From an uncultured Acidobacteriota bacterium (GTDB lineage Bacteria > Acidobacteriota > Thermoanaerobaculia > Multivoradales > JAHEKO01): a stretch of 64,000 nucleotides of DNA. The stretch is from contig CAVQNG010000003.1 of NCBI GenBank assembly GCA_963713825.1, positions 1,024,001-1,088,000 of the forward strand. Reading direction: 5' to 3'. The notes beneath the pieces are model-generated. The model was not told the origin of the DNA and did not search any database. It saw nothing but the letters and a program-made list of their open reading frames with translations. Position 1 is the first letter of the stretch, and the number at the start of each line of letters is the position of its first letter. Position numbers and translations under genes: made by a program. This document shows positions 15,551 to 62,205 of this stretch, in pieces.

Positions 15551-15730
15551 TCGTCGCGTGGAGGTCCGTCCGCGTGGTCCGCAAGGGGACGGCGTCGTCC
15601 ACTCAGACTTTGATGAATGAGCCGCCACCTGCGCTCTCCGGCGCGCCGGATCTGTCGTGCACTTCGACGACTCTTGCGCTGCGCTTGTCGAGAGCCCCCC
15701 TGCGGACCACCCGAACGAACCTCTGGCACC
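15551..15730 (-). ncRNA. Putative structured RNA/ssDNA element, copy A
   Basis: Reverse complement aligns end to end with 34371-34546, with a long terminal stem and covarying inner stems. Confidence 0.65.
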
Positions 15731-34358: not shown

Positions 34359-34370
34359 CTACCTCCACCG

Positions 34371-34546
34371 GTGCTAGAGGTTCGTTCGGCTGGTTCGTCA
34401 GGGGGTGCCACGTCGAGCGCAGCGCAAGGTCCATTGAAGAGCACAATAGATCCGGCGCGATGACGTGACAAGGTGGCGGCCCACCCATCGCAGTCTGAGT
34501 AGCCGACGCCGTCCCCCAGGCGAGCCAGCCGGACGGGCCTCTACAC
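34371..34546 (+). ncRNA. Putative structured RNA/ssDNA element, copy B
   Basis: Homologous to reverse complement of 15551-15730; ~25-bp terminal stem with several G-U pairs. Confidence 0.65.
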
Positions 34547-50402: not shown

Positions 50403-52599
50403 ATGAGCCAGGAAGATGGAAAGCGGTCCTCAGAGAGCCCACAGAAGAAGCCTCGCTTGAGTCCCACCGCCAAGATCCTCTTGAGCCTTTCCCTCGGGAT
50501 CGGCGTGGGCCTCTTCTTCGGAGAGCCGGCGGGACGGCTGGGCGTGGTGGGAGATGTCTATGTCGGGTTGCTCCAGATGACGGTGCTGCCCTTCATCACG
50601 CTCTCTCTGGTCGCCAATATCGGTCGTTTCTCACTGCAGGACGGGGCGAAGCTCATGCGGGCCGCGGCGATCGTCATGCTGGGCCTCTGGGTCCTGGGTC
50701 TGATCACGATAGCGATCGTTCCGATCTCGTATCCTCCCTTCGAGACCGGTTCGTTCTTCAGCACAAGTCTGATCGAGGCTCAGGAAGCGCCGGATTTTCT
50801 GGGCCTGTATGTGCCTTCGAACCCCTTTCACTCGTTGTCCCAGAACCTGGTTCCCGGAGTGGTGCTCTTCAGCATTCTGCTGGGACTGGCCCTGGCGGGT
50901 CTCGATCGCAAGCAGTTGGTCCTCGACCAGATGGACGTCCTGATGCAGGGACTGATGGGCGTCAACAAGTTCGTCGTTCGACTGAGCCCTGTCGGAATCT
51001 TCGCCATCGCAGCCAGCGCGGCGGGCACGATCACGCTGGCGGAGTTCGGCAGGTTGCAGGGCTACATCATCAGCCACACCCTCCTCGCGGTCATTCTGGC
51101 GTTGTGGGTCCTGCCCATGGTCGTGGCGGTACTGACCGGACTGCGCTACCGGACGGTTCTGAGTGCGTCCAAAGAAGCGGCTTTGACTGCTTTCGTCATC
51201 GGCAGCGTATTCGCGGTACTGCCCATGTTGATCGACAGCATCGAGAAGCTGCTGATGGAGGACGACTGGGATCCGAAGGACTCGACGGTAGCACCGGAGA
51301 TCCTCGTTCCCCTCGCCTATCCCTTCCCGACGTTGGGTAAGCTCTCGAGCCTGCTCTTCATCCCCTTCTCGGCCTGGTTCGTAGGTAGCTCCATCGATGC
51401 GGGCCAGATGCTGGTCTTTCTGACTTCGGGTCTGTTCAGCTCGTTCGGCAGCCTGGTGGTGACCATCCCATTTCTTCTCGACCTGCTGCACCTGCCCTCC
51501 GACATGTTTCAACTCTTCATGATGGCCGGAGTCTGGTCGGCCAGGGTCAGCGATCTGCTCGGCATCATGAGTCTGTTGGCGTTCAGCATTCTCACCGCCT
51601 ACGCCATCAAGCGCAGGATCTCGATCCACTGGCGGCAGCTTGCCGGAGCACTGGTCATCGGTGCCCTCTTGATGGGTGGCGCGATGCTGGGGACGCGGGT
51701 CTACCTGAAGACCACCTTCGAGGGTGCCTACAAGAAAGCGGACATCCTGGATCGCATGCACCTGCTCGAGCCGCTGGTACCGGCGGCGGTCCTGGACGAG
51801 CCCGCACCCAACCCGATTCCTCTGCAGCCGGGGGAGTCGAGGATCGATCGGGCCCGGAGAGAGAGGGTTCTGCGAGTCGGGTTCGATCCACAGCGACTTC
51901 CGTTCTGCTTCTTCAATCACCGCCAGGAGTTGGTGGGTTTCGATATCGACATGGCGCATCGCATGGCAGCCGATTTCAGGGTGGAGTTGGTGTTCGTACC
52001 CTTCCGCAACGAGACCCTGGTGACGCAGCTCGAGGAGGACCATTTCGACATCGCCATGTGTGGGCTCGGCGGCACGTTGAGGCGGGCATCTCGGCTCATG
52101 TTCTCGGACTCCTATCTCGACGTGACGCTGGCGGCGGTAGTCGAGGATCACCGTCGCAAGGACTTCCTGAATCGGGCGACCATCGAGCGCATCGAGAACC
52201 CGAAGCTGGCCTTCCTCGAAGGGAGCTACTTCGAAGAGAGGATCAGGACACGCGTTCCCGATGTCGACTACGTGGCGCTCGAATCAGAGGCGGAGTTCTT
52301 CGAGATGTCGGGGGAGGTCGATGCTCTGGTGACGAGTGCCGAAGCCGGAGCCGCCTGGGCTCTGTTCCACCCCGGCTACGCGATGGTCAATCCCATCCGT
52401 CCGCCGGTGAAGATTCCCCTGGTCTATCCCTTGGGTTCCGACGATGGTTATTACTACTCGCTCATCAACGACTGGATCGATCTGAAGAAGAAGGACGGCA
52501 CGGTCGACACCCTCTTCGCCTCACTGGATCCTGGGCAAGGGGGCTGAGGACAGGCGTCCCCGGTGGAGTGTGATGCGCGACGTTCTGGGTTGGGAGTAG
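50403..52599 (+). CDS. Dicarboxylate/amino acid:cation symporter fused to a family-3 substrate-binding domain (apparent indel near 52520)
   Basis: LLQMTVLP, PSNPFHSL, SPVGIFAIAA (SDF); LRVG...LPF...GFDIDMAH (SBP3); shifted frame ends HWILGKGAEDRRPRWSVMRDVLGWE-TAG. Confidence 0.87.
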
Positions 52600-52622
52600 C
52601 TTTTCCCGCCCGCGCACCCAGG

Positions 52623-52678
52623 CTTAGGGGCTTAAGGGCTTAGGGGCGTAATGGCCTAGGGGCTGAAGGGCGTAGAGG
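52623..52678 (+). repeat. Octamer array (C(T/G)TAGGGG family) x7
   Basis: cttagggg cttaaggg cttagggg cgtaatgg cctagggg ctgaaggg cgtagagg. Confidence 0.9.
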
Positions 52679-52689
52679 CTTGAGCCGCT

Positions 52690-52765: not shown

Positions 52766-53626
52766 CTACTGTGAAGAGGCCGGGAGCGAGTCGAAGAACT
52801 CCATGATCGCTTGGCCTGCCTCCTTCGGCCACAAGTGAGGGTAGAACTCACCGCGGCGATTCGTGTCCTCGGTGTGAGGGCACCAGACCACCGGGTTCAC
52901 GGCATCGGGAGGTCCGTAGCACTCACAATTCAGAGCTTGTGGTGGACACGACCGAGCCGGCGGCTCGAGGCCGTTCTGGTCGAGGGCCTGGTCTCTCGCA
53001 TGGAGGCCACGTGACAATGGGACCAGGTCGTCGTGGGGGTTGTGCAGGATCATGGCCGCCGCGGGGCCGCTGCAAAGGGAGCCCGCGATCGGCCCGCAAC
53101 GGTGCCAACTCCACGGATGACCGATCCACGGGCGCAGCCGAGGCTGTTGGCAAAGCTCGCGCCCAGCGAATGGCCGACGACAAAGACCTGGTCGAGATCG
53201 AGGCAGTAGGAGGAGCTGAAGAGCTCGAGAAGCGCGTCGAAGAAAGCGTAGTCCCGAAGGGAGTCACCAGACTGCCCGGGCTCATACCAGCTGTACTGGC
53301 CGTCCTCTCCTAGCAGCCCGGCGGGGTACACGACGATCGTTGGCGATCGTTGCGCTCTGCTCGATCTCGAAGTACCGCTGCACCTGGCCATTGGGTGTGG
53401 TGCGTCCGTGGAAGGCGACGATCAATCGGTGAGCCAAGGCCGGGTCGTACGACGACGGAATCGAGGTGATGAATTGGCGGCTCACGTCGCCAACGTCTGT
53501 CGTGGAGAGTGGGTCTACGGGTGGTGCGCTCCCACAGCCGTCGGAGCGGTGCCCTGCTGTGTCGGACCCGAAGCTTGGCGCGGCGATCTGCAGGACCAGC
53601 AAACAGATCGGTGCGAGGGTCTTCAC
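52766..53626 (-). CDS. Exported alpha/beta-hydrolase esterase (LpqC/PHB-depolymerase-like; apparent indels near 53340 and 53075)
   Basis: SDGCG, VAFHG, VVYPAG, GHSLG nucleophile, HNPHDDLV, HLWP in three overlapping frames. Confidence 0.8.
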
Positions 53627-55335: not shown

Positions 55336-56685
55336 CTAAGGCCCGAGTAGCCCCTTGATCTCCTCCTCTATCTGCACCTCGTCGCCCTCTTCGAAGCCGA
55401 TGTGGGAGAAGAGGATTCGCCCCTCCCGATCCACCAGATAGGAGGTCGGAAAACCGTAGATCTTGAGCTTGGAGGCGACGACGTTGTCGTCGCCTTCGTT
55501 GTCTTCCAGAAGGTGATAGGTGAGATTGTTCTCGGCAATGAATTCGACGGAGCGCTCGGTGTCGTGCTCGGAGTCGATCGCGATGACTTGAAGACCCTGG
55601 TCCCTGTACTTCTGCCACAGTGGCTCGAGGCGTGGTAACTCCACGCGACAGCCCCCTCACGTGGGGTTCCAGGCGGCGATCAACATGACGTCCCCGATGT
55701 GCTCAGTGGACTTGAACGTCTCACCTTCGTAATTGGGGAGTGCGAACTGCGGCAGCGGCTTGGAGTATTCCTGACGCAGGGCCCAGAGGCGCTCCTCGAG
55801 CCCTTCTTCACTTCCGTGAGTGGCGCTCCAGGCCTCGGCGAACGTCTCCTTGGCTTCCTTGGAACCAAACAGAGCTTCCGCGTTCAGCTTGTCCATTGCC
55901 GCAACGGGCTCACCTTGAAGTAGCAAGGTCTTGCCCCAGTAGAGATGGAGCGGCGTCTCGTCGACACCCAACAGAGAATACGAAGTGTCGTCTACGCCGC
56001 TGGCAAAGGAGGCCAGGGCCGCCTCGTGCTGGCCCAGGTTCTCCTGAGCCCAGCCCTGGTACGCCTGGCAGTAGGCATTGCGACGCTGACCAGCTCGCGC
56101 CGCATACTCATCGCTGAGGTCGGGCCATTGGGCCTTGAAGGCCTCTGGCGTCGCGAAGGCCAGGCCGTCCTCGGCTTGCTCGATGACCAGATTCCAGGCT
56201 CCGGCCTCGGTGGCCAGCTCCATGAGCTCGAGGTGGTCGGTGAACTGGAAATCGTGCTCTTCAGCCATCGAGCTGGCTAGCTCGCTGAGCTCCTCGAGCC
56301 GTCCCGTCTTGGAGTGCAGAACCGCCAGTTGCATCTGGGTCTCGAGCCTGGCGTCGGGATCCTCGACCTGATTCAGGGTCTCTGTCACCAACTCGTAGGC
56401 GTCATCCGGGCGATCGAGGCTCTCCGTATAGTGGTAGACCGCAGAACTCAGGAAGTCCCCCGTGTGATCACTGTCGGGGTAGCGTGCCAGGAAGTCCTGC
56501 GCCAGCCCCACTTTGACCTCCGGATCCTCGGTTTCTTCCCAGATCGCCCAGGTCTCCTCAGCAGCCTGGTCGACCTCGGACAGCTCTTCTGCGGGGCTGT
56601 CGGCTGCTGGTGGCTCGGATTGGCCGCATCCCAACGCGGCCAGCAGCGCAACACACAGCAGCCACGTCCGGTTCTGCTTCTTCAT
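55336..56685 (-). CDS. TPR + TlpA/peroxiredoxin-like thiol-disulfide oxidoreductase lipoprotein, selenoprotein (UGGC), 449 aa
   Basis: ORFs 55657-56685 and 55336-55644 are in the same frame, joined by TGA in WNPT-U-GGC-RVELPRL; YGFPTSYLVDREG; lipobox ALGC. Confidence 0.88.
55622..55656 (-). promoter_or_regulatory. Putative bacterial SECIS element
   Basis: Directly after UGA: GGCT-gtc-GCGTGG-agtta-CCACGC-ctcg-AGCC hairpin with G in the apical loop. Confidence 0.7.
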
Positions 56686-56924
56686 GAATTCTCCTCCAAG
56701 TTCGGTTCAATGAAGATCAAGGCGTAGTCGAATATCAGAAGCTGCCGGCCGAGGGCTTCGGTCGGCAGCTGTCTCCTAGCTACTTAGACGCAGGAACAGG
56801 GTAAAGGGTTTGCCCAAGTTTGCTCGGTTTGACCAACCGAGCTGCAATAGGTCACAGGCGCCACGGTTTCTGAGTTTGACTGTCGAGTCTTTGCGAGCGT
56901 GCCGCTTCGGGTTAGTGTTACCTG

Positions 56925-56959
56925 CCAGGACCCAGGACCCAGGACCCAGGACCCAGGAC
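56925..56959 (+). repeat. Perfect heptamer array (CCAGGAC) x5
   Basis: Ends 4 nt before ATG 56964. Confidence 0.97.
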
Positions 56960-56963
56960 CCTC

Positions 56964-57665
56964 ATGATCTCCATCTCCGAACTCCGCTTTCACTACTCCC
57001 AGGGTGGATTCGCCCTGTATGTGCCCGAGTTGGTGGTTGAATCGGGTGAGCGAGTCGCCGTCATCGGACCCAGCGGATCCGGCAAGACCACCCTGTTGAA
57101 CCTCATCGCCGGGATTCACTCGCCGCAGTCGGGCAGTGTGATCACCAACCAAGTGGACATCTCGGGCCTCGCCGACGGGGCGCGTCGCGATTTCAGGATC
57201 CGCAATATCGGCCTCGTCTTCCAGGAATTCGAGCTCCTGGAGTATCTGAATGTCGTCGACAACATCCTCCTGGCCTACAGGATCAACGGGTCGCTCGAGC
57301 TGAACAAGGAGGTTCGCCAGAGGGCAGTCGAGTTGGCAGAGATGATGGGCATCGGCGACAAGGTGAGCCGCAACGTCCGGCGGTTGTCGCAGGGAGAAAA
57401 ACAACGCGTCGCCGTGTGCCGGGCACTGCTCGCCGAGCCGCCGTTGCTTTTGGCGGACGAGCCCACCGGTAACCTCGATCCGACCAACAAGGACAAGGTC
57501 CTGGACATCCTGATCGAGTACGCCGAGTCGAAGGGCTCGACCCTGGTCACCGTCACCCACGATCACGACCTTCTCTCCCGCTTCCAACGCGTCATCGACT
57601 TCAAACAGTTCTACGACCTCCCAGCGCAGAACCCCAGGACCCAGGACCCAGGACCCAGGACCTGA
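56964..57665 (+). CDS. ABC transporter ATP-binding protein (LolD/MacB-type)
   Basis: GPSGSGKT, LSQGEKQRV, LADEPTGNLD, VTHD. Confidence 0.95.
   Translation: MISISELRFHYSQGGFALYVPELVVESGERVAVIGPSGSGKTTLLNLIAGIHSPQSGSVITNQVDISGLADGARRDFRIRNIGLVFQEFELLEYLNVVDNILLAYRINGSLELNKEVRQRAVELAEMMGIGDKVSRNVRRLSQGEKQRVAVCRALLAEPPLLLADEPTGNLDPTNKDKVLDILIEYAESKGSTLVTVTHDHDLLSRFQRVIDFKQFYDLPAQNPRTQDPGPRT
57634..57661 (+). repeat. Perfect heptamer array (CCAGGAC) x4
   Basis: Encodes the PRTQDPGPRT tail of the ATPase; ends 3 nt before ATG 57665. Confidence 0.97.
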
Positions 57666-58846
57666 TGAGAGACACCCTCTATCTCGCCTGGCGCTATCTC
57701 GCGCACCACCGGATCAAGACGGCGATCCTGGTGGGCTCGCTGACGCTGATCACGTTTCTGCCGGTCGGGTTGAATGTGATCGTGGGTCAGAGCGCAAGGG
57801 AGCTCACCTCCCGGGCGGAAGCGACACCGCTGCTGGTCGGGGCCAAGGGAAGCCCTTTGGAGTTGGCGCTCAACTCCCTCTATTTCGAATCCGACACGCC
57901 CACGCTGACCACCTACTCGGAGGCAGTACGGATCGAAGAGACAGGCCTGGCAATGCCCATTCCGCTCTATGTGCGCTTTCGGTCGCGCGATTATCCAATC
58001 GTCGGGACGACCTTGGAGTACTTCGACTTTCGCGGTCTCGAGGTTGCCTCGGGCCGCTCGATGGCTGTCCTTGGGGAATGTGTTCTTGGATCCAGGGTAG
58101 CGGCTGATTTGGACGTCGGACCGGGCGACACGGTTGTCTCGTCACCGGAGAGCGTCTTCGACCTGGCAGGGGTCTATCCCTTGAAGATGCAGGTCGTCGG
58201 TGTTCTGGGGCCGTCGTACACGGCGGACGATGGGGCCATTTTCGTCGACCTCAAGACCACCTGGGTCATCCAGGGTCTGGTCCATGGGCACCAGGACATG
58301 GATGCGCCAGAGGCCGCCTCAGGAGTACTGAAGCGCGAGGGAGACACCATCACCGCCAACGCCTCGGTAGTCCAGTACAACGAGATCACCTCTGACAATG
58401 TGGACTCCTTCCATTTCCACGGTGGCATGGATGGATATCCGATCTCGGGTGTCATCGCGGTGCCGCACGATCAGAAATCAGGCACCATTCTCATGGGCCG
58501 CTACGAGGCTAGCGACGACATCAGCCAGATCGTGCAACCGGCAACGGTGATGAACGACCTGCTTGGAACGATTCTGACGATCCGAGAGTTCGTGGTGGCG
58601 GCTCTGCTCCTGGTGGCCATCGCCACCCTGGCAACTGCCGCCTTGGTTTTTCTCCTTTCGCTGCGCCTGCGACGCCGAGAGATCGACACCATGAGCAAGA
58701 TTGGCGGCTCGCGACTCAGCATCGGGACCCTGCTCGTCTCCGAGATCGTCGCGGTCCTTCTGGCCGGAGTTCTCCTGGCGGGCTTGCTCACCGTGTTGAC
58801 GGCGCAGTTTGGAGAAGGGCTGATCAGGGCGTTGTTGTTGGGATGA
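57665..58846 (+). CDS. ABC transporter permease (FtsX/MacB-like)
   Basis: LAWRYL, LLVGAKGSPL, large periplasmic loop, RRREI...IGGSR. Confidence 0.9.
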   Translation: MRDTLYLAWRYLAHHRIKTAILVGSLTLITFLPVGLNVIVGQSARELTSRAEATPLLVGAKGSPLELALNSLYFESDTPTLTTYSEAVRIEETGLAMPIPLYVRFRSRDYPIVGTTLEYFDFRGLEVASGRSMAVLGECVLGSRVAADLDVGPGDTVVSSPESVFDLAGVYPLKMQVVGVLGPSYTADDGAIFVDLKTTWVIQGLVHGHQDMDAPEAASGVLKREGDTITANASVVQYNEITSDNVDSFHFHGGMDGYPISGVIAVPHDQKSGTILMGRYEASDDISQIVQPATVMNDLLGTILTIREFVVAALLLVAIATLATAALVFLLSLRLRRREIDTMSKIGGSRLSIGTLLVSEIVAVLLAGVLLAGLLTVLTAQFGEGLIRALLLG

Positions 58847-58850
58847 GAAG

Positions 58851-58910
58851 GGCTTGGGTCCTGGGCCCTTGGGAGGGCTTAGGGGCGTAGGGGCTTTAGG
58901 GCGTAGGGGG
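58851..58910 (+). repeat. Inverted heptamer units (GTCCTGG family) followed by octamer array TAGGGGCG
   Basis: ggcttgg gtcctgg gcccttgg, then taggggcg taggggct ttagggcg taggggg. Confidence 0.9.
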
Positions 58911-58915
58911 TGAGC

Positions 58916-59275
58916 TTAGGAGCTGGTTCTGCGAACGCGAATCAAGGCAGTGAGAGCAGCGGAGGTTCTACGACAGAGAACCTCCAGTTCCTCGAAGGCC
59001 TCCCCGCCAAGGAAACCGAGATCGCGACTGAGCTTGATGTAGTAGCTCAATTCTCGAAGCGACCCGAGGGCACATTCGAGGAATCGAGCGTACTCCTTTT
59101 CGCTAAATCGGGCGCAGCCTTCGACAATGTTCGCAGAGACCGAGACGGCACTTCTTCGCATTTGAGATACGAGGCCATAGCGCTCATGTCCGGGGAAGTG
59201 CTTCGTCTCGCGGTATGTAAGGATTACGAGACTGTGGGCGAGCTTGAAGGTGCTCAGCTTTCGGTGGTCTCTCAC
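58916..59275 (-). CDS. Four-helix-bundle protein (23S rRNA IVP / Avd-like family)
   Basis: RDHRKL, FP.HERYGLVSQMRRSAVSVSANIVEG, FL..ALGSLREL, DLGFL; GTG start inferred. Confidence 0.93.
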   Translation of the reverse strand: MRDHRKLSTFKLAHSLVILTYRETKHFPGHERYGLVSQMRRSAVSVSANIVEGCARFSEKEYARFLECALGSLRELSYYIKLSRDLGFLGGEAFEELEVLCRRTSAALTALIRVRRTSS

Positions 59276-59354
59276 TGTTCGATCGCGCCCTCTTGGAGTG
59301 ACGAAAAAGGGGCACAAGTTCTTCTAGTGGCACTAACTGTGGAGAAGCAGACTC

Positions 59355-60326
59355 GTGACGCATCAACTTCAGAAGTATTTCCTGCCGATAGTTGCCTTGG
59401 CCTTTTGTGCATGTGGTCCCAGTGATCCGTCAGGGGAGTCAGGCTCGGGCACTTCCCCTACGCCCTCAAGCCCCTACGCCCCTACACCCCTGTCCGTCTA
59501 CACCACCAACTACCCCCTCGCCTACTTTGCCGAGCGGATTGGTGGTGAGCAGGTCGAAGTGGTGTTTCCTGCGCCGGCCGATGTGGACCCCGCCTACTGG
59601 GCGCCTGAGCCAGAGGTGATCGCAGAGTTCCAGGAGGCGGACCTCATCCTGCTGAACGGCGCCGGCTACGAGAAGTGGATCGAGAGGGCGAGCCTGCCAG
59701 CGAGCAAGCTCGTCGATACCTCGGCGGCGATGGAGAGCAGCTACATTCCGCTGGATGATGGTGTCGTTCACACGCATGGCCCCGAGGGCGAGCATTCACA
59801 CAAGGGGTGGGCCTTCACGACCTGGCTGGATCCGATGATCGCCATTGCGCAGGCGCAGGCCATTCAGGAAGCGCTTGCCGAGTTGCGCCCGGTGGCTGCG
59901 GAGGACTTCCGGGTCGCTTACGAGGGGCTTCAAGCCGATCTCTTGGTCCTCGATGCACAACTAGGGAATGTCGCTGCCGACCTCGGCGACCGTCCCATCC
60001 TCTTTTCCCATCCTGTCTACCAGTATCTCGATGAGCACCTCGGCTTGAATGGCGAGGCGGTTCACTGGGAGCCTGGCGAGATGCCGACCGAGGAGATGTG
60101 GGGAGCCCTCGCAACCTTGCTGCAGTCACATCCCGCGGAGCTCATGGTCTGGGAAGGGGAGCCGCTCGAGGCGGTGAAGAGTCGCCTGGCGGGATTGGGG
60201 CTCCAGAGCGTGGTCTACAACCCTTGTGGCAACGCGCCTGAGAGCGGCAACTACGGATCGGTGATGCTCCAGAACGTCGCCAACCTGCAGGCGGTTGCTG
60301 GGTCCGACTCTGGAGAGGCGAATTGA
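59355..60326 (+). CDS. ZnuA/TroA-type metal ABC substrate-binding lipoprotein
   Basis: Lipobox FCAC, ADLILLNGAGYEKW, His-rich loop HTHGPEGEHSH, TWLDP, SHP.YQYL. Confidence 0.9.
   Translation: MTHQLQKYFLPIVALAFCACGPSDPSGESGSGTSPTPSSPYAPTPLSVYTTNYPLAYFAERIGGEQVEVVFPAPADVDPAYWAPEPEVIAEFQEADLILLNGAGYEKWIERASLPASKLVDTSAAMESSYIPLDDGVVHTHGPEGEHSHKGWAFTTWLDPMIAIAQAQAIQEALAELRPVAAEDFRVAYEGLQADLLVLDAQLGNVAADLGDRPILFSHPVYQYLDEHLGLNGEAVHWEPGEMPTEEMWGALATLLQSHPAELMVWEGEPLEAVKSRLAGLGLQSVVYNPCGNAPESGNYGSVMLQNVANLQAVAGSDSGEAN
59455..59490 (-). repeat. Octamer array inside the SBP N-terminal linker; inverted partner of 58880-58909
   Basis: cccctacg ccctcaag cccctacg cccctaca cccc, encoding SPTPSSPYAPTP. Confidence 0.9.
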
Positions 60327-60467
60327 AGATTGGCGGTGGCCGGAAGACAAGCAGGCAGCGCCTGAATCGACCGAACATGCCGGTGGGCCTTTCCGCTCGG
60401 CTATTTGGGGGCAGTTATCCTGGCTGCCGGATACTTCTTGCTGCGGTACTGAAGAGCCAGCCGATAC

Positions 60468-60488
60468 CCAGGACCCAGGCCCCGGGAC
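60468..60488 (-). repeat. Degenerate heptamer array x3
   Basis: ccaggac ccaggcc ccgggac on +, ~9 nt past the SIMPL stop. Confidence 0.7.
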
Positions 60489-60497
60489 TCGATGACG

Positions 60498-61214
60498 CTA
60501 GTCATCGACAAGGAAGTACTGGATCGTCGTCACGACCCGGACCTTCTTGAACTCGGGTGAGAAGCGATCCCGATCCTCGACAGAGAAGTAGCCTTGCTGG
60601 GCGTTGCGGATGGCACCCACTCGACTACCGGAGTCTTCCGCAAACTGCTCGGCAGCACGCCGGGCGTCGCGTGTCGCCTCGGCGATCATCTCTGGCTTGA
60701 TCTGCTCGAGGCCCGTGAACAGAAACGAAGTCTGATACTCGTAGCTCCGAATCAGGGCAACGCCGGCCTTCACCAGATCTCCCGACTGCTGCATGCTGCG
60801 CTTTGCGGCATCGATGTCTCGGGTGCGCAGAGTCATGGTCGTTTCAGCGGCGTAGCGCTGAGGCGGTCGACTTCCGGGCGCGAACGTTTGCAGGTTGTAG
60901 TCGGTGATGCGTGGGACCGAGAGATCGAACTCCTCGGAGGCGAAGTCGGCACTCAGGAACTCGGTGATCTCAGCGGCGCTGCTATCGATTCCCTGTTGTA
61001 GGCTGCCGAGATCGTTGGCCGAGACGGTGAAGACGATCGGCCAAATGGCCAAATCGGCCGGCACTTCCCTCTCAGAGAGGCCTTTGACCGTCACGAAGCG
61101 CTGAGTCGCTCGAGCCTGGAAGAGCCCGTTGCCGATGAAGTAGCCGCCGAGAGCGAGGCCGACGGCCAAGAAAAGGCCGAGCACCACGGCTGGACCCGCA
61201 TCTCTCTTTCCCAT
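60498..61214 (-). CDS. SIMPL (DUF541) domain protein
   Basis: VTVKGLSEREVPADLAIWP, KPEMIAEAT..AR.AAEQFA.DSG, KKVRVV; start may be 61226. Confidence 0.9.
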   Translation of the reverse strand: MGKRDAGPAVVLGLFLAVGLALGGYFIGNGLFQARATQRFVTVKGLSEREVPADLAIWPIVFTVSANDLGSLQQGIDSSAAEITEFLSADFASEEFDLSVPRITDYNLQTFAPGSRPPQRYAAETTMTLRTRDIDAAKRSMQQSGDLVKAGVALIRSYEYQTSFLFTGLEQIKPEMIAEATRDARRAAEQFAEDSGSRVGAIRNAQQGYFSVEDRDRFSPEFKKVRVVTTIQYFLVDD

Positions 61215-61227
61215 TCTCTCTTCCATC

Positions 61228-62205
61228 TCACTCTCCAGGTTGGCGTGGAGCGAAGAGTAATGTGCCTCCACTACCGTCTTCCTTCTCGAAGCTCAGGGCT
61301 AGTTCGCCAATGAAGAAACCGATCTTGAAGACTCTCTCGAGCCGCTGTCGGTAGCGATCCTCGAGCTCCATGATCTCGGGTGGGCAGGCCATCATGGTGC
61401 CAGCCAATAAACCGACTGTCAGGTCTCCGGGCATCTGACCTTCGGTGACCGAGCCCATGTACTGGTTGCAGCCACTCTTGCCCGCGATGCGATCCTCCTC
61501 GAACAAGAGGGTGATCTCAGGCTCGTCTGGAGCTGGTTCGTTGCGGTCGAGATTGCGCAGCACCCACTCGGGCCCTGCAAACGCGGCAATCGAAAGGCGC
61601 CCGGGCTCGACACCAGATTCCACCGGGTTCAGGGAATTACCCTCGAGCGCCCAGGCCAGGGTTGCCATCTCGCCCGGGCAACAGCCGGCATCTTCAGGAC
61701 CGGCTTGGACGATATCGAGCTCGACCCGGTTGCCGGAGATTCGAGAGTCACGCAGCTGCACCCGATCACCGATCTCGGCCGTGGCGATATTGACAACTTC
61801 CGAGCCCTCACGACCCAGGGCGGCCAAGTAGCTGTAGGTCCCCGAGCCACCCGAGCTTTCCCAAAGCATCACGACTGCCTCTTCCACTCCGTCGCCGTCC
61901 ATGTCGCCGGTCAAGAGAAACTCCTCGATCAGGCCGACTCTCGGAAAGGAGGCGCCCTGCGGCTCGAATGGCTCTCCTTCGTACTTCCCGCCCTGGAGTT
62001 GCACCGGCTCGTCGTAGATGCCATGGATGGTGGTGTTGGCAATCTCATCGAGAGAGGGCGGCCCTTCGGGCTGCGTGCTGGCTGCCATCGTGGCCTCTGC
62101 CTCCTCGTTGGCAGGTGTCGGATTCTGGCCGCAAGAAAGCAACGTGATTGCGAGTGTCGTAAAGATCAGTATGGACAAGAGTCCCAGGATCTGCTTGTTT
62201 TCCAT
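61228..62205 (-). CDS. META/HslJ-domain lipoprotein
   Basis: Lipobox LLSC, SGGSGT, CCP, GKSGCNQY, GTMMAC. Confidence 0.87.
   Translation of the reverse strand: MENKQILGLLSILIFTTLAITLLSCGQNPTPANEEAEATMAASTQPEGPPSLDEIANTTIHGIYDEPVQLQGGKYEGEPFEPQGASFPRVGLIEEFLLTGDMDGDGVEEAVVMLWESSGGSGTYSYLAALGREGSEVVNIATAEIGDRVQLRDSRISGNRVELDIVQAGPEDAGCCPGEMATLAWALEGNSLNPVESGVEPGRLSIAAFAGPEWVLRNLDRNEPAPDEPEITLLFEEDRIAGKSGCNQYMGSVTEGQMPGDLTVGLLAGTMMACPPEIMELEDRYRQRLERVFKIGFFIGELALSFEKEDGSGGTLLFAPRQPGE

Follow-up and report, generated by a model that had tools for sequence, protein, structure and literature searches.

Five alleles of a small four-helix-bundle gene were found to share one junction in related sediment bacteria from two Acidobacteriota genera, a new arrangement in which the repeat array on one side of the gene matches in class the array that encodes the linker of the neighbouring lipoprotein. 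The bracket formed by these arrays has a fixed polarity and the gene a fixed orientation, the class of repeat word is linked to the resident allele, and alleles have been exchanged at this one site in a mosaic manner. One such junction, inside a metal-transport operon, lies in the window, the whole stretch of 64,000 nucleotides analysed here, from the genome of an uncultured Acidobacteriota bacterium (G000). Its features are as follows:

57665 to 58846, plus strand: ABC permease with a MacB-like periplasmic core, the upstream host gene (PF12704, 33.6 bits, cut-off 27)
58850 to 58872, plus strand: decayed 7-nt-class array, G-rich, forming the outer layer of the left flank; its class is that of allele C
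58875 to 58909, plus strand: left arm of about 4.4 octamer units; the plus strand is G-rich and the minus strand C-rich, directly past the stop of the bundle gene
58916 to 59275, minus strand: four-helix-bundle gene (TIGR02436/PF05635 by profile scores), 119 aa, allele A
59276 to 59354: 79-bp gap between divergent starts, holding both ribosome-binding sites
59355 to 59454, plus strand: start codon of the binding protein with its lipoprotein-type signal peptide and the first residues of its linker, between the arms (by translation)
59455 to 59491, plus strand: right arm of about 4.6 octamer units; the plus strand is C-rich and encodes the SPTPSSPYAPTP linker
59355 to 60326, plus strand: ZnuA-family metal-binding protein, the downstream host gene (PF01297, 134.3 bits, cut-off 29)

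By profile search, genes for an ABC ATPase and the permease lie 5' of the junction, and the last 52-150 residues of the permease are 92-100% identical to orthologs from the same genus. The lipoprotein gene starts with a GTG codon that has GGAG 10 nt 5' of it, and a signal peptide ending in Cys is present in all orthologs of the lipoprotein; in the protein encoded at 59355..60326, we take this signal peptide to carry a lipobox. The linker encoded by the right arm is made of Pro, Ser, and Thr, and on the minus strand the same arm is G-rich and lies about 180 nt 5' of the bundle start. A promoter scan of positions 58700-60600 found no sigma-70-like promoter, and an Rfam scan of the same region returned one chance-level match and none of note. 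The decayed array at 58850..58872 pairs with the other 7-nt arrays of the operon (I2-I4), and both arms of the junction in loci L108/L123 belong to its 7-nt class. Arrays of the 7-nt class were also observed at three more gene borders nearby, at 57633-57662, before the start codon of the ATPase gene, and at 60466-60488. Further upstream in the window are a long octamer array (52621-52681), located 3' of a transporter gene (50403-52547), and an esterase-type-looking gene (52766-53626) split over three frames, of which the two pieces that were scanned gave no family match.

The bundle protein scored 104.7 bits against TIGR02436 (cut-off 24) and 105.5 bits against PF05635 (cut-off 33.8). With the PF01297 score of the lipoprotein likewise above its cut-off, this bears out an earlier note on this DNA, which had described a repeat enclosing a bundle gene together with the start and signal of a lipoprotein. 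The bundle gene, of which one copy was found in G000, probably starts at GTG 59275 (119 aa) rather than at TTG 59317, because the orthologs in L081 and L108 have an ATG at this position and a purine-rich site lies 5' of the codon. A predicted model of the protein contains four helices (residues 2-26, 32-56, 59-85, and 91-118; mean pLDDT 75.7), and its top fold matches were XCC0516 (PDB 2GSC) and BT_0352 (PDB 2RLD). Both are direct homologs (E 5.8e-21 for the former and, by profile, 4.9e-10 for the latter), deposited as uncharacterised and with neither ligand nor repeat context seen, and both entries comprise five chains, which suggests that the bundle protein is a pentamer as well. Likeness to the fold of Avd, the accessory protein discussed below, was weak (4DWL at rank 11, E 0.13, TM 0.49, with a single-sequence model), and a profile search from the bundle family did not reach Avd. 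The gene evolves under purifying selection, with dN/dS values of 0.10, 0.13, and 0.27 against three close alleles, and substitutions in four allele pairs followed an ordinary, transition-rich spectrum. Hypermutation of the enclosed segment was ruled out by these ratios (0.10-0.27) and by the absence of an adenine bias. The G000 genome, which is 96% complete, contained no match to the reverse transcriptase family PF00078 (the control matched in 3 of 14), and no match in G000 to PF13366 pointed to a GxxExxY nuclease partner.

The inverted repeat was recovered as it had been described, with the reverse complement of 58880-58909 matching 59455-59484 at 29 of 30 positions, and a repeat finder extended the pair to 35 nt at 91% (58875-58909 / 59455-59489). 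This match is not special, because the arms are members of a family of 7/8-nt arrays dispersed across the genome. Elsewhere in G000, 26 positions match the 30-mer at 26 or more of 30 (two at 29/30, both at unrelated sites, and three at 28/30), and the left flank pairs better with three unrelated arrays (scores 30-32) than with its own partner (27). The variant unit, whose identical place in both arms had been pointed out in the note, is therefore close to the family consensus and no private signature. As a bracket, the arrangement exceeds chance; as an exact match, it is less than it appears.

An excess over chance was seen in the flanks of the family at large, which the earlier note had proposed to survey. 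The family search gave 83 bundle loci, of which 8 at contig edges were excluded, leaving 75 (rows L167 and L004 are one locus). An inverted match with a score of at least 14 was present in 50 of the 75 loci, against 0 of 61 shifted controls. These bracketed loci span many phyla and include words incapable of forming G-quadruplexes, and the upstream arm was purine-rich in 43 of the 50. Arms proved specific to closely related proteins: those of different loci matched one another in 3 of 725 protein pairs with less than 50% identity and in all 4 pairs with more than 80%. Over 40 loci, protein identity and arm similarity showed no overall correlation (Spearman about 0), and a protein-to-word code was not borne out. 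In 7 of 43 bracketed loci, the upstream arm fell in a frame on the opposite strand, none of them resembling a signal peptide plus linker.

At least 135 loci with the lipoprotein gene were examined, 39 of them with 300-base flanks only, and 131 could be anchored. Among the anchored loci listed, 9 have a bundle gene 5' of the lipoprotein gene. In 8 of these it lies antisense between permease and lipoprotein, and all 8 have a linker array; the ninth, L064, is distant (lipoprotein 49% identical); its bundle gene is co-oriented, the lipoprotein start is intact, and a linker array is lacking. Empty junctions, the bundle-less relatives suggested for comparison in the earlier note, reach the same linker-array score in 6 of 59 cases among the loci listed, and only one of these, L006 from the same genus (G002), resembles the site classes, with a decayed array. 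The signal regions of the empty junctions have diverged too far to show a target-site duplication. The remaining 63 anchored loci are too short, lack the permease, or contain other inserts. The protein-plus-repeat system that had been proposed is thus supported, as the linker array tracks the bundle gene. Seven further loci have a linker array; the signal peptide is in frame in six of them and the seventh is truncated by the contig end. Two partial junctions, L251 (of G003) and L040 (of G001), also hold the bundle gene antisense, and the orientation is antisense in 10 of 10 orthologous assembled junctions listed, which represent the majority form and include several close kin or duplicates. 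At L116, in another lineage, a different small gene lies between permease and lipoprotein, which by its motif we take to be GxxExxY-like.

The bundle genes at this junction, all from related loci and partly duplicates (L108/L123), represent five alleles, four complete and one partial. Allele A is present in G000, G001, L081, and L099 (76-92% identical), B in G004, C in L108/L123, D in G059 of the other genus, and the partial allele E in L040. Alleles A-D are mutually 56-61% identical, and for A, B, and C, identities are 93-100% at the end of the permease and 82-95% in the body of the lipoprotein. In each case, the class of the left arm matches that of the lipoprotein linker, and the linker class switches with the resident allele. 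The left arm of allele B scored 17 with its own linker and 6-7 with A linkers, that of allele C 14 with its own and 5-7 with A linkers, and that of the partial allele E 18 with a linker of the same class in G005 and 5-10 with other linkers. Alleles A and D are only 58% identical, yet have a common octamer class. In the linker of allele D (L041), a variant unit was seen exactly where the common unit would be an in-frame stop codon; the arm therefore adapts to coding.

Some of the arms are layered. The left flank of G000 has a 7-nt relic outside its octamers, G003 has a B-like relic outside A, and the linker of G004 has A units outside B units, so that in these three genomes older repeat classes are outermost and newer ones inside. 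Between alleles, the 5' region including the signal peptide is 45-54% identical, where shuffled sequences gave a mean of 47 and a maximum of 53. In L108 compared with G000, the lipoprotein body has a dS of 0.25, the bundle gene is saturated, and the 5' region, at 51%, is at background, whereas in L081 compared with G000 the 5' region is 94% identical and the bundle dS is 0.88. Neighbouring modules of the junction have separate histories in this comparison, and the idea that the 605 bp always move as one block was ruled out, as the bundle gene and 5' region part in L081 and L099. In a quick tree of 90 proteins, the 8 rows from this site and one Myxococcota row form one clade (SH-aLRT 96), and all five matches to the bundle family in genera g1 and g20 are at this junction. 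No sign of active transposition was seen, with one copy in G000 and no new sites in relatives from g1/g20. We read this as one old insertion and divergence in place, followed by exchange through recombination. The G001 bin contains two copies of the junction, L040 (G001:C163, allele E) and L004 (G001:C193, allele A), so either the bin includes a second strain or the junction is duplicated.

The words of the bracket are widespread in G000, where 52 arrays have a period of 8 and 18 a period of 7, against 13 with a period of 9 and 3 each with periods of 10 and 11; the four repeat classes of the junction are the main classes genome-wide. A more sensitive scan of the genome found 247 arrays, against 34 in one shuffle, and 110 of the 247 contain a G-quadruplex motif. 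By rough gene calls made for this analysis, 99 arrays genome-wide lie between convergent genes and 12 between divergent ones, and the strands are biased, with G-rich arrays past stops (52:13) and C-rich arrays ahead of starts (15:1). Facing pairs of intergenic arrays run G-then-C in 16 cases and C-then-G in one. Within the words, positions 1-3 and 6 are invariant and positions 4, 5, and 7 variable (18 flanked units), and by whole-unit counts, 57 arrays have 3-4 units, against 18 with 2 and 14 with 5 or more. Both the positional variation and the peak at 3-4 units are as expected of a five-fold reader; detection and slippage also contribute to them. Across genomes, the octamer triplet was found in 11 of 45 family genomes, including 9 of 9 from the two gene-carrying genera, with 0 for the reversed control. 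Matches to the class-A triplet were highest in G004 (61), although this genome holds allele B, and five genomes of g1/g20 (completeness 69-98%) have arrays and no bundle match. Gene-less facing pairs were considered as decayed cassettes, which found no support in G000: only 5 of the 16 score at least 13, and several enclose other dispersed repeats. No bundle remnant was detected in G000 by a local profile (best other match i-E 9.6).

A dispersed repeat of about 180 nt, non-coding and with inverted termini, was also observed, with 77 copies of at least 120 nt in G000 (for example C3:1341752-1341931, and in the window near 15561-15730 and 34366-34542). Beside 55 of these 77 copies lie 7/8-nt arrays, nearly always G-rich in the direction of the repeat. 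Away from this repeat, the strand bias of the arrays persists (46:13 past stops and 13:1 ahead of starts). Seven paralogs, kinase-like by motif reading (C25:232185, C3:310186, C3:387913, C3:1774071, C5:14866, C5:47311, and C5:57198 of G000), contain C-rich arrays of different classes in one N-terminal loop, where they encode Pro-rich inserts. Several facing and back-to-back 7-nt arrays occur in one long gene region at C14:131389-135038, and near-identical stretches at C21:15795 and C22:15923 are possibly strain duplicates in the assembly.

We favour, at about an even chance, the explanation that the bundle protein forms a pentamer that binds repeats and is flanked by its own sites, and that its gene has long resided at this junction and been exchanged by recombination. 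The matching kind of word on either side of each allele points to recognition of these words by the protein; nucleic-acid binding, RNA binding, and control of its own transcript are all putative functions. The predicted pentamer would read a short purine-rich word, one unit per subunit. The transcript of the bundle gene would have a G-rich leader array, antisense to the lipoprotein linker, to which the protein would bind and so curb its own expression, and the C-rich array past the bundle stop could pair with this leader. The gene would have entered the junction once, ahead of the split between the two genera, and then diverged into alleles with different words. Strains would trade these alleles by homologous recombination, often along with the lipoprotein start and signal peptide, and upon exchange the new arrays would come to lie inside while the old arrays remain outside. 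The right arm may be located in the lipoprotein linker because no closer place would tolerate it. Some 200 other gene borders and loops of proteins are marked by words of these classes, probably as further sites or relics of these proteins. The linkage of alleles and words could also be plain physical linkage.

Compatible with a repeat-binding pentamer, though unlikely, is processing in the manner of an intervening sequence (IVS), one of two readings offered in the earlier note. The arms would pair in the operon mRNA, RNase III would cut the stem, the antisense gene would be removed with the lipoprotein ribosome-binding site and signal peptide, and lipoprotein output would fall. Folding of a 654-nt segment indeed predicts that a long stem closes it (-284.2 kcal/mol; z -4.67 relative to 20 shuffles), the expected number of long-range pairs is 26-51 on both strands in all seven alleles folded, and an RNase III gene is encoded in G000. 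The account in PMC4990558 provides a precedent in the helix 45 IVS of Coxiella burnetii, which has a 28-bp terminal stem and heptamer repeats 5' of the S23p ORF, and which RNase III cleaves in vitro. However, no strand-specific pairing was detected over the 50 family brackets, where 52 G-U stand against 55 A-C mismatches, and in L081, which has kept the G000 linker, the left arm has drifted to 5 mismatches in 29 with no base-level compensation. Because the mismatches have no strand preference and the arms drift uncompensated, what is conserved is the word class and not the pairs. In addition, same-class array pairs of this polarity all fold so, and ribosomes on the signal peptide would be expected to melt the right arm. 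We also consider it improbable that the arrangement is a by-product of arrays that spread by slippage, conversion, and hitch-hiking on the 180-nt repeat, with a protein that has no recognition role. Selection involving stop codons and G-quadruplexes would then keep the C-rich strand where the sequence is coding or precedes a start, and the G-rich strand where it follows a stop, and any inserted gene would therefore land between facing arrays. The excess of arrays over the shuffle (247 against 34), the strand biases (52:13 and 15:1), and the G-quadruplex motifs (110 of 247) are consistent with this, as are the seven kinase-like paralogs, which have C-rich arrays in one loop and no bundle gene nearby, the poorly matching arms in 11 of the 16 short facing pairs, and the lack of a bundle remnant in G000. 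A by-product fits less well with a bracket that recurs across many phyla (50 of 75 loci), some with words that have no G-quadruplex capacity, or with arms that both switch class with the allele and arrays that are mostly absent from empty junctions.

The other reading in the earlier note was an invertible switch, in which a recombinase would flip the 605-bp segment, with loss of the lipoprotein start and alignment of the bundle gene with the operon. The geometry allows for this, and L064 has a co-oriented bundle gene, but there the start is intact and a linker array is missing. None of the 10 assembled junctions, which represent the majority form, is inverted, the arms vary in class and period among alleles, with up to 6 mismatches, and the 30-mer is common to many genomic sites. 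With a signal peptide also in frame in six of the seven further array loci, the switch did not hold up, and we regard it as extremely improbable. Among the 11 neighbouring ORFs scanned by profile, no recombinase was found. Very unlikely, too, is a form of end-capping, in which the bundle protein and a polymerase from elsewhere would add the word to free 3' ends of DNA, similar to telomerase; G-rich strands would therefore run from the host gene towards inserted or broken DNA. At stops, starts, and bundle flanks alike, the polarity is that of a G-rich strand leading away from the host gene, newer classes are found inside older ones, and Avd partners a reverse transcriptase according to the account in 10.1101/2023.10.23.563531. 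On the other hand, the 96% complete genome has no PF00078 match, the arrays are short and mixed, and the substitutions in the bundle gene are free of adenine bias.

Among known systems, the Coxiella 23S rRNA IVS, as described in PMC4990558, shares with this unit the protein family, a gene in the loop of a stem of about 30 bp, and tandem repeats 5' of it. Unlike that IVS as described, the unit lies antisense in a protein-coding operon with one arm forming coding sequence of the next gene, its words occur at about 200 other sites, and its five alleles have different words. Terminal inverted repeats do form a long stem around the ORF in the predicted fold, but the flanks are permease and ZnuA-family genes and not the rRNA gene in which a 23S IVS is located. 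The Avd protein of the Bordetella phage diversity-generating retroelement is a related pentameric barrel, similar to S23 proteins, and its five protomers leave crevices in which it contacts flipped-out bases, as reported in 10.1101/2023.10.23.563531. While its fold match was weak here, it supplies a model for base reading between protomers; in the same account, Avd binds one stem-loop and not a tandem array. Another difference from the Avd system is that G000 has no reverse transcriptase match and no adenine-biased change. A diversity-generating retroelement was ruled out on these grounds (0 PF00078 matches and no adenine-specific variation), and none of the 20 repeat families listed was a long direct repeat in 56000-62000. 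The attenuation ring TRAP of Bacillus has 11 subunits, is ligand-gated, and has each subunit read one unit of a purine-rich RNA leader, which makes it a works-like analogy for a repeat-reading ring, with an unrelated fold. Many short repeats at gene ends are also known as REP/BIME and as the cyanobacterial STRR heptamer arrays. Like these, the arrays described here favour convergent gaps (99 versus 12 divergent); unlike them, they also occur in protein linkers and are tied to the bundle gene. We found no published account of repeat-bracketed bundle genes outside rRNA in the open-access literature. The unit works like an IVS-type gene in a stem, while an rRNA IVS, a diversity-generating retroelement, and a switch are all rejected as its identity.

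What the proteins of the "23S rRNA intervening sequence protein" family do has long gone unexplained, and for many families of short repeats in bacteria no reader is known. Five related proteins at one site, with a predicted word for each, provide a matrix for tests of cognate and non-cognate binding. The repeats also reshape the linker of a host protein and tie the start codon and signal peptide of that host to an exchanged block. A broader view, which we consider distinctly unlikely, is that PF05635 proteins are re-programmable repeat readers that seed their own sites, each allele with its own 7-10-nt word. The word of an incoming allele would then be written at the flanks of the gene and in tolerant places of the genome, including linkers of host proteins, always with the G-rich strand directed away from the host gene. 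If this were true, nature would have provided a specificity series in the five alleles, and the layered arms would document their succession.
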